Shown in pieces: positions 7,335 to 24,747 of a stretch of 50,377 bases of DNA (within the stretch, counting starts at the first letter, position 1; each line of letters opens with the position of its first letter). The position numbers and the translations under genes were made by a program. This DNA is from Deltaproteobacteria bacterium TL4 (GTDB taxonomy: Bacteria; SAR324; NAC60-12), in NCBI GenBank assembly GCA_051382335.1, contig JBBCAX010000399.1:1-50377 (forward strand). The letters are read 5' to 3'. The notes under the pieces were generated by a model that worked only from the letters and a program-made list of their open reading frames with translations, was not told the origin of the DNA and ran no database searches.

Positions 7335-7464
7335 GGCGATGGTCTTTCTTTGGATTTGGTAAAAGCAAGCTTTGGCACTCCACAGTCTAGGTTAGACTCA
7401 ACGGAATTTATTTAAATGAAGTCTATAGCTGTAATCAAAATCATTGCAATTGGAGTTCATGAAC

Positions 7465-8889
7465 ATGCAGAAACGTCAAAACCAGGCCCCCTTAGAATTT
7501 AAAATTGCGATTGTCGGTTCAGGTCCAGCGGGATTTTACGCCTTAGACGCTTTAGTAAAATCAGGACGAAGGGGCATCATGATCGATATGTTTGAGCAAT
7601 TGCCAACGCCCTATGGCCTTGTCCGCTCAGGCGTTGCGCCGGATCACCAGGACATCAAATCGGTGACAAAAATTTATGAACGAAATGCAAGTAAAGCAAA
7701 ATTTAGATTTTTTGGTAATGTTCAAGTAGGACAGGACCTTCAAAAGGGAGATTTATTCAAACATTATCATGTCATCATCTACTCGGTAGGCACTCAAACC
7801 GATCGTCGAATGGAAATTCCTGGTGAGTCCTTAAAGGGGTGTTACGCGGCGAAGGATTTTGTAGGCTGGTATAATGCGCACCCTCATTTTCGAGATGCCT
7901 CGTTTAATTTTTCAGCATCCAAAGTCGCCATCATCGGCATGGGAAATGTTGCCGCTGACGTCGCACGAATGCTGGTAACCGAGACCAAACGGTTCGCAAA
8001 AACGGACATTGCGGACTATGCACTGTCTGATTTACAGCGCAATAAAGCCAAGGACGTCTACCTCATTGCCCGACGCGGAGTGTTACAATCCGCTATCACG
8101 CCCACGGTCATCAGGGAATTTCTGAAGATTGAGGGGGTTGATATGGTTATTAATCCTGAAGACTTGGAACTGGACAATGCCAGTCAAAGGGCCTTGGACC
8201 ATGCTGATAAAGAAATGATACAGGGGTTCGAAATGTTGCAGTTCCTCTCACAAAGGCCAATACAGGGGCATCCCAAAAGGATCCATTTTTTATTTAAAAG
8301 ATCCCCCACTGAGGTACTGGGACTCGATCATAAAGTTTGCGGTCTCAGGTTGGTCCACAATCAACTCGTTGAGGAAAGTGGCGGGGCGATTAAAGCGGTT
8401 CCCACCGAACACTATGAGGAATTAAAAGTTCAATCCATATATCGAGCCATTGGATATCTGGGCATCCCCATTCCCCATGTTTCTTTTGACCCCAAACGCG
8501 GAATTATTCCTAATCGGCAAGGCCGAGTGATTGACTTGAAGACAGGAGCGGTGTGTCCCGGTGAATATGTGACAGGATGGGTAAAGAGAGGGCCAAGCGG
8601 CGTTATTGGAAGCAATAAAGCGGATGCCGCTGAAACTATAAGTCACATTCTTGAGGATTACCCCGAAACCTCGCAACTCGAACCTTCTGAGATAGATAAC
8701 AAGGATATTGTCGCTTGGCTCAAAGAAAATAAGATCCCTTATACTACCTTTGGTGATTGGAAGTTTATTGATGATACTGAAAGAGCGATTGGAGCAACGA
8801 AAGGAAAGCCTAGAGATAAGTTTTCTATCGTAGAACAGATGCTGGAACTGATTAACACGCATCGAAACTTTAGTGAGACCAACGGCTAA
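7465..8889 (+). CDS. Ferredoxin--NADP+ reductase (FprA/adrenodoxin-reductase type)
   Basis: IVGSGPAGFYA, PTPYGLVRSGVAPDH, IGMGNVAADVAR, GWVKRGPSGVIGSN, GKPRDK. Start chosen downstream of GGAG; the ORF is open from 7444. Confidence 0.92.
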   Translation: MQKRQNQAPLEFKIAIVGSGPAGFYALDALVKSGRRGIMIDMFEQLPTPYGLVRSGVAPDHQDIKSVTKIYERNASKAKFRFFGNVQVGQDLQKGDLFKHYHVIIYSVGTQTDRRMEIPGESLKGCYAAKDFVGWYNAHPHFRDASFNFSASKVAIIGMGNVAADVARMLVTETKRFAKTDIADYALSDLQRNKAKDVYLIARRGVLQSAITPTVIREFLKIEGVDMVINPEDLELDNASQRALDHADKEMIQGFEMLQFLSQRPIQGHPKRIHFLFKRSPTEVLGLDHKVCGLRLVHNQLVEESGGAIKAVPTEHYEELKVQSIYRAIGYLGIPIPHVSFDPKRGIIPNRQGRVIDLKTGAVCPGEYVTGWVKRGPSGVIGSNKADAAETISHILEDYPETSQLEPSEIDNKDIVAWLKENKIPYTTFGDWKFIDDTERAIGATKGKPRDKFSIVEQMLELINTHRNFSETNG

Positions 8890-8947: not shown

Positions 8948-9169
8948 ATGTGTTTAGGTATTCCCATGAAAGTTGTTGCCATGGATCCGGAAGATCCGGA
9001 TTTGTGCTGGGTTGAAGAAGCAGGGACCAAACGACCCTGCTTTATAGGATTACTTGAAGATGTCGTCATCGGAGAGTATGTTCTCTTACATGCAGGCTTT
9101 GCCATAGAAAAACTGGATGAAAAGGAAGCTCTGTACAATTTAGAACTGCTCAGCCAACTTCAAAGGTAA
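8948..9169 (+). CDS. hypC: [NiFe]-hydrogenase maturation chaperone HypC/HupF
   Basis: N-terminal MCLGIP and GEYVLLHAGFAIEKLD; 73 aa. Confidence 0.95.
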   Translation: MCLGIPMKVVAMDPEDPDLCWVEEAGTKRPCFIGLLEDVVIGEYVLLHAGFAIEKLDEKEALYNLELLSQLQR

Positions 9170-9190
9170 CCGTTTTATAAGAAAAAGATT

Positions 9191-9973
9191 ATGGAAATCA
9201 ATTATGAATCAATCAATCAGGTAGGACATTTATCCTTTACTGTTTATAATGGCGCAATGGATTTATACCACTGCGAAAAATTATTGGAAGCCTACCAAAC
9301 GGCCGCATCGTCAAAAGAGGACAAGGTGCTTGTTCTCTGGGGAGGCACAGAATTTTTCTCGAATGGAATTGACCTAAGCGCCATCCATCATCGCTACAAT
9401 CCCGCAATACTGGCCTATAAAAATTTAAAAGCGCTAAACGAGGTAATACGCGCGATTCTTGAAACCAAAGATAAGTTTGTGATTGCCGCGCTGCAGGGTT
9501 CTGCCGCAGCAGGAGGCGTGATGCTGGCGTTAGCGGCAGATCTGAGGTATGGACGTGACGGCATTGTTCTAAACCCCTCTTATGTCAATATGGGCTTATC
9601 CGGAGCGGAATACTGGTCGGTGTTATTACCCTCGATGATTGGTTATGGCAGAACTCAAAAATTGATTTACGAGGCAGAACCCCTTTCTTGTGAACAAGCG
9701 GTTCAATGGGGACTGATTCATGCGCAATTGAGTCGAGAAATTCACATATTTCAAAAAGAAGTCGCCCAAAAAGCGGAATATTTTGCCTCACACAATATAG
9801 AAACCCGGCTTGCCGCGAAATCAGTACTCAATCATCGTATGTTGAAAGAAATGGAGGAACAGATCCGCCTTGAAATGACTGCCATGAAAGAATGCTGTAA
9901 TCATGCGGAATTCGCTCAATCCCGGAGTCACTTTATCTCCAAGCACAAAAACAATCCATACCCTCAACATTAA
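9191..9973 (+). CDS. hypX: Stand-alone C-terminal (crotonase-fold) half of HypX/HoxX
   Basis: YNGAM, FFSNGIDL, AAAGGVMLALAAD and VLNPSYVNMGLSGAEYWS match the HypX C-domain pattern; lies between hypC and hypE. Confidence 0.85.
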   Translation: MEINYESINQVGHLSFTVYNGAMDLYHCEKLLEAYQTAASSKEDKVLVLWGGTEFFSNGIDLSAIHHRYNPAILAYKNLKALNEVIRAILETKDKFVIAALQGSAAAGGVMLALAADLRYGRDGIVLNPSYVNMGLSGAEYWSVLLPSMIGYGRTQKLIYEAEPLSCEQAVQWGLIHAQLSREIHIFQKEVAQKAEYFASHNIETRLAAKSVLNHRMLKEMEEQIRLEMTAMKECCNHAEFAQSRSHFISKHKNNPYPQH

Positions 9974-9988
9974 CCAAGGACCCCAAAC

Positions 9989-10999
9989 ATGAGTCACTCA
10001 GTCATCACCCTGGATCACGGGAGCGGCGGTGTCGCCTCAAGGCAACTGCTCTATGAGGTCTTTGGAAAATGGTTCTCCAATGGTTATCTTCAGCACTATG
10101 CTGATGGCGCGGTCTTACCTTTCGAAAATCAAAACATTGCGTTTACTACCGATTCTTTTGTGGTTACCCCTTTGTTCTTCCCTGGAGGAAGCATTGCTTC
10201 CCTGGCGATCAATGGAACCGTTAACGATCTATGCATGGTGGGAGGGATTCCTCAGTTTTTGTCCTCGGCGTTTCTCATCGAAGAAGGTTTTTCTTTAGGG
10301 TTACTGGAGCAGATTGTCCAGGAAATGGCACAAGCGGCACAGCGGGCCGGGGTGCTCGTGGTTACGGGCGATACCAAAGTGTTACCGAAAGGAACGCTGG
10401 ATGGTCTGATCATAAACACCACGGGAATTGGCCGTATTCCACAAGCGGTTCAACTGGGGAAAAAACAGGTCCAGATAGGAGATCATATTCTCATCAATGG
10501 AACGATTGCTGATCATGGCATCACCATCTTGTCCGTTAGAGAAGAATTAGACGGAGTAGAAGCGCTTGGGTCTGATTGTGCGCCTTTGAATTCTCTACTC
10601 ACCCCGTTACTCGAAAAATATCAAACCATCCATTTTTTAAGAGATCCTACCCGTGGAGGGGTTGCCGCTGTTTTGAATGAATTAGTTGAAGCGATGGAGT
10701 TTGGTGTGGTCCTGAATGAAGAAGCCATCCCGATCAAACTCCCTGTCAAAAAGCAAAGTGAACTCTTGGGAATTGACCCCCTTTACGTTGCGAATGAGGG
10801 CAAAGTGATCTTGGTCTGTGCCCCTGAAGACAGCGCGGAGATACTGGACCTCATGCAGGCCCATCCTTTGGGAAAAGAGGCTCAGAAAATAGGAGAAGTG
10901 TTTGGTGCCAACAAAGGGAAAGTGTTTCTGAAAACAGTGTATGACTCCTATCGAAGAGTGGATATGCCTCAGTATGAACAACTTCCACGCATCTGTTGA
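9989..10999 (+). CDS. hypE: Hydrogenase maturation carbamoyl dehydratase HypE
   Basis: HGSGG, TTDSFVVTPLFFPGG, GTVNDL, VTGDTKV, RDPTRGG, ANEGK and C-terminal LPRIC. Confidence 0.97.
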   Translation: MSHSVITLDHGSGGVASRQLLYEVFGKWFSNGYLQHYADGAVLPFENQNIAFTTDSFVVTPLFFPGGSIASLAINGTVNDLCMVGGIPQFLSSAFLIEEGFSLGLLEQIVQEMAQAAQRAGVLVVTGDTKVLPKGTLDGLIINTTGIGRIPQAVQLGKKQVQIGDHILINGTIADHGITILSVREELDGVEALGSDCAPLNSLLTPLLEKYQTIHFLRDPTRGGVAAVLNELVEAMEFGVVLNEEAIPIKLPVKKQSELLGIDPLYVANEGKVILVCAPEDSAEILDLMQAHPLGKEAQKIGEVFGANKGKVFLKTVYDSYRRVDMPQYEQLPRIC

Positions 11000-11003
11000 T
11001 TCT

Positions 11004-11840
11004 ATGAAATGCGATTTTTCCTCTCTAAAATGCCTTTTTCTGGTCTCGTCCTTTAATGGCTTAAGTCAAAAAGTATGGTGCAATTTAGCTTTGCTGTTCC
11101 AATCCTCAAAGCTCATGCTAGGCCTTGATGAAAAAGCCCTACAAGCTTACCAGCCTGATTTAATTCTGTGTCCTTACCTTTTAGACTACTTACCAGAAAC
11201 GGTTTGGAAGAAAACCCCGTGTTTTATTGTACATCCTGGTCCTGTTGGTGATCGAGGCCCGAGTTCCTTAAACTGGGCTGTGTTAGAAGGTAAAGCGCAA
11301 TGGGGCGTCACCATCCTGGAAGCCAAAGCGGAATGGGATGCCGGACCTGTCTGGGCAACAGGATCCTTTGCTATGCCTCAAGCCTCAGTGGCTCATATCT
11401 ATCGCACCCTCGTTGCGGATCAGGTATTAGAACTTCTGCCTCAAGCCGTTGAACGTTATTTCAGCAAGCAGCCGTCAATTCCTCAAATAAAAGGCACCTA
11501 TCGAAAACGAATCCACACCCAGGACTTATTTTTTTCATGGCAGGAAAGCACACAGAGCATCTTGGTAAAAATAAGAGCAGGAGACAATCACCCAGGAACC
11601 TTGGGGATGATTGACCATCAACAATACTATTTATACGGAGCGTCGCAAGGCACGTTAACAGGAAAACCCGGAAGTCTTCTTGACGAACATTGGGGAGAAA
11701 TCTGCGTCGCAACCGGGGATGCCAGTATTTGGATCAGCCGAATCGCACTCCCTGGCGGCGTTAAACTCCGTCCCCACACCTTGCTGGCTTTGGGCGATGC
11801 TCCTCCCCATGAAAGAAAGGAAGGGGGTCCACCCCGATGA
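11004..11840 (+). CDS. hypX: Stand-alone N-terminal (formyltransferase) half of HypX/HoxX
   Basis: SSFNGLSQK, ILCPYL, IVHPGPVGDRGPSSLNWA, WGVTILEA..EWDAGPVWA, KIRAGDNHPG, ICVATGDASIWI. ATG lies 4 bp after the hypE stop. Confidence 0.88.
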   Translation: MKCDFSSLKCLFLVSSFNGLSQKVWCNLALLFQSSKLMLGLDEKALQAYQPDLILCPYLLDYLPETVWKKTPCFIVHPGPVGDRGPSSLNWAVLEGKAQWGVTILEAKAEWDAGPVWATGSFAMPQASVAHIYRTLVADQVLELLPQAVERYFSKQPSIPQIKGTYRKRIHTQDLFFSWQESTQSILVKIRAGDNHPGTLGMIDHQQYYLYGASQGTLTGKPGSLLDEHWGEICVATGDASIWISRIALPGGVKLRPHTLLALGDAPPHERKEGGPPR

Positions 11841-23217: not shown

Positions 23218-24747
23218 TTATGTAGAAAATCCAGAGAAGGGCTCCGCCTCACTATCAACACGAATACGATCCATTCCGGTCGCTTGCATCAACGTTGCTT
23301 CAAGATCCAACAAAACGGTCACATCCCCAGATTCTTCCCGCCCGATGGCCTCAACAATCCGATGATCGCTTTCTTCTCCCCAGTGTTCTGGAATATCAAA
23401 AATGGTGTTGGAAAGGTAAGTGATTCCAACAATGTCTTCCACTTGCAAGCCGACTTTACGCTCTCCAATATTCACCACAATGATTTTAACATGATCATTT
23501 TTGGGGATGCTATTGGGACTTTCGAACATCCGGGGGAGATCAATCACCGTAATGATTTCACCTCGGACATTGATGACGCCTTTTACATAAGTCGGGCATT
23601 TAGGGACAGAAAACACAAGAGACGGGGGAACCGAAGTAATGTGGTTGACCTGCAAAAGCCGAATCGCATAGATTTCATTTCCGATCTTGAAACGAATTAA
23701 AGAAATAATTTCCTCATCATTATCTTCTTCCGGCAGTTCATATTCCAGTTCTTCCTCATACTGAAACTGACTCAGACGTTCTAACTCGGTTTCTGAAAAA
23801 ATCTGATTCAGAAGTATGACCATATACACATAATGCTCTTTTTCGGCAGGAATCTGAACAATGCCTTGTAAATGAGCGGCCTTATGACCTGTGACATTTT
23901 TAGGCAGAGGGCCAATTTTAGAAGGTTTGATCCGCAACACGCCACGAATTTGATCCACCATTAATCCGACCTTGGTTCCTTGGACATTCACTACCAGGAC
24001 ATAGGTCGTTTCTGTAATTTTACTTTGCCTTAAACCAAAGCGTCGGGTCAAACTCAGTAAGGGGATGACTTGGTTTCTCAGGTGAAAAACGCCTTCAATA
24101 TTATGAGAGGACTGAGGAACTTTAATCAAGGTTGGGAACCTGATAATTTCTTCAACATCACTGATTTCCAAGACATAGTATTCATCAGCCAGTCGAAATC
24201 CAACAAAAACCTGCTCAGCTTCCGCAACGATTAATTCCCCACTCTGCTGTCCACTGGGCTTTTCTTTCATGACTTTTACTTCGGTTAAGAAGTCTTCATG
24301 CTTAATCAGCCGTTCTTGATCCAAAAGTAAAAGGGATTCATCATTTTCAAAATGCACAGCTCCCGTTAAAAACTCCAGGGTATTGGGGTCAACCAATGGC
24401 GGAGGAAGCCGAATCTGACTATGTTGCACATTGACCACTTCTCCCATTTGATCCACAAGCAATCCCAAGCGAGAGGCCGCATAATCCACAATCAGAACAC
24501 GCTGGTTATCATGTCTGGGGACATGAGAGAGTCCAAACCGCTGTCGTAAGTCAACGGTTGAAATGGTTTCTCCACGCAGATTTAAGACCCCCAGAAAAAA
24601 ATCAGGAGTTCTGGGAATAGGAGTGATTCTAGGGGGCCGAATGATTTGCTGTACTACCTCGATATGCACACCAAAGCGTTCATCGCCTACTTTGAATGTT
24701 ACATATTTAGCAAAATTTTCTGAATAGACACTGCCAGATCCCGTCAT
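23218..24747 (-). CDS. cheW: Chemotaxis adaptor with three tandem CheW domains
   Basis: Three repeats: GVLNLRGETISTVDL, GVFHLRNQVIPLLSL, GVINVRGEIITVIDL, each followed by a GL(L/M/Q)V(D/E) motif. Confidence 0.9.
   Translation of the reverse strand: MTGSGSVYSENFAKYVTFKVGDERFGVHIEVVQQIIRPPRITPIPRTPDFFLGVLNLRGETISTVDLRQRFGLSHVPRHDNQRVLIVDYAASRLGLLVDQMGEVVNVQHSQIRLPPPLVDPNTLEFLTGAVHFENDESLLLLDQERLIKHEDFLTEVKVMKEKPSGQQSGELIVAEAEQVFVGFRLADEYYVLEISDVEEIIRFPTLIKVPQSSHNIEGVFHLRNQVIPLLSLTRRFGLRQSKITETTYVLVVNVQGTKVGLMVDQIRGVLRIKPSKIGPLPKNVTGHKAAHLQGIVQIPAEKEHYVYMVILLNQIFSETELERLSQFQYEEELEYELPEEDNDEEIISLIRFKIGNEIYAIRLLQVNHITSVPPSLVFSVPKCPTYVKGVINVRGEIITVIDLPRMFESPNSIPKNDHVKIIVVNIGERKVGLQVEDIVGITYLSNTIFDIPEHWGEESDHRIVEAIGREESGDVTVLLDLEATLMQATGMDRIRVDSEAEPFSGFST

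Follow-up and report, generated by a model that had tools for sequence, protein, structure and literature searches.

The two domains of the hydrogenase maturase HypX are encoded as separate proteins in a SAR324 bacterium and in 15 other genomes

In contig JBBCAX010000399.1 (50,377 nucleotides) of Deltaproteobacteria bacterium TL4 (GCA_051382335.1, phylum SAR324), analysed here as a whole and called the window, a stand-alone crotonase-fold gene and a stand-alone formyltransferase gene lie on either side of hypE. The question raised by this locus is whether the two genes are the domains of HypX (HoxX), the maturase that makes the CO ligand of [NiFe] hydrogenase and is otherwise a single chain, and whether the two proteins still act together. 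The four genes of the series are all on the forward strand: hypC (8948-9169, 73 amino acids; PF01455, HupF_HypC, E 2.4e-22; TIGR00074 69 bits, cut-off 48) for the Fe(CN)2CO scaffold chaperone, the crotonase-fold gene (9191-9973, 260 amino acids; ECH_1), hypE (9989-10999, 336 amino acids; TIGR02124 406.9 bits, cut-off 251.6) for the carbamoyl dehydratase of the cyanide ligands, and the formyltransferase gene (11004-11840, 278 amino acids; PF00551 and PF02911), which has both subdomains. An earlier reading from the letters alone (the sequence-only reading) had given the same series with gaps of 21, 15 and 4 bp, and the open reading frame coordinates agree; the motifs it had called intact, HPGPVGD, EWDAG and NPSYVNMGLSGAEYW, are all present in the translations. 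The 278 amino acids are counted from the ATG after the hypE stop; the reading frame itself extends, still open, back to an ATG within hypE, at 10941.

The crotonase-fold and formyltransferase genes are the two domains of HypX, present as separate intact proteins with no frameshift, and are referred to below as C half (P0002), the predicted formyl-CoA decarbonylase, and N half (P0001), the predicted formyl-tetrahydrofolate:CoA formyltransferase. In a comparison with 177,635 distinct PDB sequences the top match of both is the HypX of Aquifex, with E 2.6e-47 for the N half (next family 1.8e-08) and E 7.5e-40 for the C half (PDB 6J0P family; next family 1.5e-14). Identity to the Cupriavidus necator HypX (pHG1, WP_011153943.1) is 32% for the N half and 41% for the C half (residues 11-195). 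An AlphaFold model of the C half (pLDDT 82.8, no templates) has the HypX C domain as its closest solved structure, with a TM score of 0.90 and a root mean square deviation of 2.0-2.2 A over 255-258 columns; its last helices fold back as in monomeric HypX, and several (swapped) crotonases superpose at 13-18 A. The sequence-only reading had named a closer kinship to generic Fmt or enoyl-CoA hydratases as a ground for giving it up. HypX is by far the stronger match: the N half scores 58.8 with the Fmt model TIGR00460 (cut-off 201.5), the best crotonase model gives the C half 86.2 (cut-off 300), and in trees each domain groups with fused HypX against the outgroups with SH-aLRT 99-100.

The residues proposed as catalytic in Aquifex are His74, Asp80, Asp109, Tyr416 and Glu426 (Muraki et al. 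2019, PMC6802093). By the Aquifex numbering, transferred by eye from HMMER alignments, they correspond to His77, Asp83 and Asp112 of the N half and to Tyr131 and Glu140 of the C half, and the C. necator pHG1 protein has Tyr439 and Glu449 in the matching motif. The equivalents of His74 and Asp109 are kept in 25/25 stand-alone N halves, those of Tyr416 and Glu426 in 39/39 stand-alone C halves.

When the protein searches were restricted to half-length sequences, the C half retrieved 39 C halves, itself included, with identities of 50-68%, and the N half 19 with 47-55%; below either set the matches fell off abruptly to pieces of fused HypX. The C profile, run against 1.84 billion representatives at 50% identity, found a single cluster, scoring 445 bits; the next reached 217, and nothing lay in between. 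The closest named relatives of both halves carry the SAR324 cluster label, and the two-gene HypX forms one tight lineage of SAR324 relatives, Lambdaproteobacteria and Psychromonas. The genome search proposed by the sequence-only reading thus found the same split at 15 loci beyond the window, so it is not unique to this genome. The resulting 16 loci (13 lineage members out of 67 genome loci, together with the window and the loci of genomes G009 and G098) include cultured Psychromonas (according to the source names, P. ingrahamii 37 and P. aquimarina) and a closed chromosome. Purifying selection acts on the lineage: in the eight of ten pairs that are unsaturated, dN/dS is 0.10-0.22 for the N half, 0.05-0.15 for the C half and 0.06-0.21 for hypE, which disposes of the relaxed selection that had been named as another possible refutation. 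Both pairs containing the window are saturated, with pS 0.75-0.80 and pN 0.22-0.32.

The arrangement of the two genes varies. In 13/16 loci the N gene stands directly before the C gene, mostly as hypC-hypE-N-C-hypD, with gaps from -4 to +216 bp and with the two genes in different frames in nine of the twelve measured; two loci, the window and that of G009 (same family, other genus), have the order C-hypE-N; and in G061 the halves are unlinked: the C gene precedes hypD on a contig of 170 kb, and the N gene, on a separate contig, has no hyp neighbours within 8 kb. The C gene adjoins hyp genes in all 16. Of the description "split and permuted" the first part stands, and the reversed order around hypE is not a defining feature; since 13 loci have N-C against two with C-hypE-N, the order in the window is most simply read as a later shuffle of the common one. 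In G009 about 310 bp separate hypE from the N gene (L114:10538-10858); this interval includes a short direct repeat and the end of a reading frame that appears to resemble REP-associated transposases, and it gave zero Pfam matches. The accession numbers of P0003 and P0122 are two apart with the C half first, which hints at a further assembly with a C-x-N order. A fused HypX with the C domain before the N domain (circularly permuted) was not found among 145 new representatives, 95 of them with both domains. The same survey material contains a protein (P0404) that joins a HypX C domain to a FolD-like cyclohydrolase/dehydrogenase, and two canonical-type C domains that start at the domain edge (P0347, 264 amino acids, and P0467, 270 amino acids), which may be truncated pieces or independent stand-alone forms.

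Nine of 88 genomes from the phylum of the window have the C half of the two-gene lineage, and the N half occurs in these same nine and in none of the others; all nine have HypD, which is found in 34/88 overall. Another genome of the phylum (G077) carries, where a contig begins, a C fragment of canonical type. In the family of P. aquimarina (G064, locus L004; 42 genomes) the C half occurs in 7/42 and HypD in 12/42. A sample of 101 Campylobacterota gave 16 matches, all of them long frames of fused size, and a metagenome scan gave three loci of the two-gene lineage out of 59, on short contigs with the partner visible on none.

How could two separate proteins do the work of one? In fused HypX the C domain anchors the adenosine of coenzyme A (CoA), the phosphates of CoA are gripped by residues of the N domain, and formyl-CoA is retained by the protein (PMC6802093, PMC12134894). 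It is likely that the two halves form a heterodimer which rebuilds this shared cavity and makes the CO ligand of [NiFe] hydrogenase under oxygen. In such a complex the adenosine would be anchored in the C half and the phosphates held from the N half, which would transfer the formyl group of N10-formyl-tetrahydrofolate to CoA by means of His77, Asp83 and Asp112; the pantetheine arm would then swing over to the C half, whose Tyr131 and Glu140 would release CO. In the presence of oxygen this CO would be handed to HypC-HypD. No linker being needed between the partners, their genes could change order freely, which would account for adjacent N-C genes in most loci, C-hypE-N in the window and unlinked genes in one genome.

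We infer the pairing of the halves only from conserved CoA and interface residues, most of the CoA contacts of HypX being retained on both sides. Gln22, Arg134, Asp194 and Lys254, which in HypX contact the other domain or the CoA anchored there, are each invariant in 25/25 N halves; in the C halves Asn20 is kept in 38/39, Asn58, Gly59, Leu62 and Phe248 in 39/39 and Asn128 in 37/39. Arg134 and Asp194 are of the HypX type, generic Fmt having Phe (11/12) and Asn (10/12) at these positions. Across the two genes, in 16 genomes, Gln22 is paired with Asn128 in 15, Asp194 with Tyr, His or Phe at position 19 in 15, and Asp139 with Arg122 in 12; of the four with Pro139, which form one clade, three lose Arg122. 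Two charge pairs, Arg246-Asp61 and Arg/Lys256-Asp24, are present in 16/16 each. The first falls where Aquifex has the His246-Asn346 contact and covaries in fused proteins, an acidic residue 61 accompanying a basic residue 246 in 10/14 as against 18/112, a comparison uncorrected for kinship; the second, which adjoins the lost Arg261-Glu312 bridge, is proposed only tentatively as a contact. The four N halves of loci L010-L013 have no acidic residue at the Asp80 position and Pro at 139, and Arg122 is lost in three of their C halves, so that these proteins possibly have an altered activity or interface.

Several results weigh against a heterodimer that works as HypX does. The Asp80 equivalent is present in 31/31 fused proteins, and is Asp in 11/25 N halves and absent in four. 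Lys254, Asp61, Phe248 and Lys251 lack specificity, since generic Fmt or crotonases often have them too. Conservation of the interface set (one position of which was mapped off by one residue) does not differ significantly from the rest, with 0.73 against 0.64 in the N half (p 0.08) and 0.70 against 0.71 in the C half (p 0.57). Out of ten readable direct interdomain pairs (PMC6802093, Supplementary Table 1) the window keeps four, changes two and loses four; Ser194 and Gln195 of HypX are Asn and His in the proteins of the window; and the C-terminal tail past Lys251 has nine residues in its C half against 20 in Aquifex. Moreover, 25 of the 34 HypD-bearing genomes of the phylum have no HypX-level match, so the two-gene HypX appears dispensable for many relatives.

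Whether the two genes arose by fission of a fused gene or were never joined was addressed with trees of each domain, for which 190 rows were de-replicated to 15 split and 31 fused ones (Aquifex not included). In the unrooted trees of both domains the split rows stand on one side with SH-aLRT 100 and show the same subgroups, so the halves belong to one lineage and were inherited together. The two-gene HypX has likely moved with the hyp cluster between SAR324 relatives and Psychromonas, in either direction. Of four quick trees rooted on crotonases or Fmt, three place the two-gene lineage outside all fused rows and one nests it, unsupported, inside fused HypX; two of the four, including the nested one, were built with 47 fused rows and with four Psychromonas rows omitted, and the outgroup branches are long. 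In fixed-topology root tests (LG+G4, all 115 root positions) the stem between split and fused rows scores best for both domains, and roots inside fused HypX are not rejected at 23/92 positions for the C domain and 67/92 for the N domain. The trees therefore favour a sister position of the two-gene lineage to fused HypX without establishing it, and a firm placement as sister to all fused HypX was dropped, given the one nested tree and the many unrejected inside roots. It is possible, though on balance doubtful, that the lineage was never fused and is a surviving two-protein sister of all single-chain HypX that preserves the stage when a formyltransferase and a crotonase began to share one CoA for making CO; the C half would then be a natural formyl-CoA decarbonylase, open to assay, and perhaps to feeding, in the absence of the N half.

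A different possibility is that the halves act apart: formyl-CoA would leave the N half for the cytoplasm, to be decarbonylated by a C half that may be docked on HypCD and may also use formyl-CoA from other sources. Such independence would agree with the unlinked genes of G061, the interdomain pairs lost and the interface set that is not significantly more conserved. Yet, judging from the HypX structure, the N half by itself lacks an adenosine site, and it keeps the residues that grip the CoA phosphates across the interface; the C half never occurs without the N half among the nine genomes of the phylum; and formyl-CoA remains bound in the fused protein (PMC12134894). We regard separate action as unlikely. 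Between the two versions offered by the sequence-only reading, a heterodimer or a diffusible formyl-CoA, the residues examined thus speak for the heterodimer and less for diffusion. Improbable as well is a change of job, to another role in hydrogenase maturation or in one-carbon metabolism, for example hydrolysis of formyl-tetrahydrofolate or formyl-CoA, with no CO made. The long stem in both domain trees, the relaxed Asp80 equivalent (14/25 N halves) and the family-specific changes Asp24, Arg256 and Leu74 would fit it; the invariant Tyr416 and Glu426 equivalents do not, nor does the constant place of the C gene beside hyp genes, where it stays with hydrogenases of different kinds (NAD-linked in Psychromonas, a membrane uptake type in L010 and L013). 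That hypX is merely decaying or misassembled, a broken gene or an assembly join such as a draft of 445 contigs might contain, is very improbable, and for the family as a whole it is refuted by the varied gaps, frames and orders, with the reversed order recurring in G009, and by the dN/dS values.

As for the window itself, it is an entire contig of a 6.59-Mb draft genome (100% complete, 2.6% contaminated), contains no N, and has the locus at 9-12 kb inside its 50 kb. The GC content of hypC, C half, hypE and N half is 43-48% (genome 43%), and the locus shares no repeat with the rest of the assembly beyond a weak match of 40 bp. Scans for promoters and terminators gave counts at chance level (5 against 7.8 and 6 against 6.3, respectively). 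A gene for an FAD/NAD(P)H oxidoreductase (7444-8889, same strand) ends 58 bp 5' of hypC, and none was found beside the hyp genes at the related loci compared. Elsewhere in the window, 23218-24747 encodes a 509 amino acid protein made of three CheW domains.

Compared with the known HypX/HoxX proteins (Aquifex aeolicus, PDB 6J0P-6J1J; C. necator; Rhizobium leguminosarum), the two genes share both domains, the five proposed catalytic residues, most CoA contacts, the C-domain fold and the siting among hyp genes in a setting with hydrogenase and oxidase. They differ in not being a single chain, with hypE between them in the window, in the absence of the linker (Aquifex 271-288), in the short C-terminal tail, the changed interface and the free gene order, and in forming a separate long-stemmed lineage. 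Fmt, ArnA and the hydrolase domain of 10-formyl-tetrahydrofolate dehydrogenase on one side, and enoyl-CoA hydratases/isomerases on the other, share the parent folds, but are far weaker matches, below the NCBIfam cut-offs, and lack the HypX-specific residues. Another locus (L254, G233:C316:1-9000) has the order hypC-hypD-PurN-like formyltransferase-crotonase-hypE-hypA-hypB-hypF, and thus likewise two separate genes among hyp genes, its crotonase having a Tyr and a Glu in the matching motif. Its formyltransferase lacks the C-terminal subdomain and gives no match to the N half at E 1e-4, in distinction to the N half of the window, which carries Formyl_trans_C and matches HypX; its crotonase shares 27% identity with the C half and, in the tree, branches outside the group formed by HypX and the two-gene lineage. 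By these sequence comparisons L254 represents a second, more distant two-gene HypX-like family, distinct from that of the window.

The sequence-only reading knew of no characterised example, and full-text searches of the literature likewise yielded no description of a two-gene HypX; the supplements of Burstel 2016 and Schulz 2020 could bear on novelty. For P. ingrahamii 37, Barz et al. 2010 (PMC2974642) give one accession as HypX, without comment in the part concerned, and by gene count from the hydrogenase in the Psychromonas order this is likely the N half. The two-gene HypX is real and conserved, and it appears to be undescribed.

The genome of the window has no copy of a fused hypX. It encodes hypA, B, D and F and one NiFe hydrogenase away from the hypC-hypE locus, together with FolD and the cbb3 oxidase subunit CcoN (over cut-off), which make a supply of formyl-tetrahydrofolate and exposure to oxygen plausible; this gene set would fit a microaerobic need for HypX. 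The hyp genes are scattered (contigs C160, C442, C96 and C413): hypF is interrupted, its parts lying at the ends of two contigs; hypD-hypA and hypB are carried by others; and three further contigs terminate in short hypF-like sequences. The only client found is the protease-independent hydrogenase at G000:C417:6527-11152 (L070), in which the gene for the large subunit precedes that for the small one; the large subunit ends at its last His, with no extension, and the small subunit has a twin-arginine-like (Tat) leader. No hydrogenase maturation protease was found in this genome or in G009. The next gene encodes a methyl-accepting chemotaxis protein in which the CxxCH motif occurs twice (a haem-c chemoreceptor). 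In G009 these three genes, two for the hydrogenase and one for the receptor, lie upstream of hypD-hypA-hypF (L252), and in G007 a homologue of the N-terminal part of the receptor adjoins the hydrogenase (L253). This protein is a candidate periplasmic hydrogen chemoreceptor, on which a literature search turned up nothing.

The mechanism of HypX depends on an intermediate that is enclosed between its two fused domains. With natural separate halves in cultured Psychromonas, formyl transfer and decarbonylation can be assayed singly, and the channelling model becomes directly testable. Because the databases label these halves "enoyl-CoA hydratase", "formyltransferase" or "hypothetical", the aerobic supply of the CO ligand has been overlooked in these bacteria of marine and subsurface habitats. 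Should the lineage prove to predate the fusion, it would show how the biological synthesis of CO from folate was assembled, and would bear on the question of other CO sources in hydrogenase maturation.

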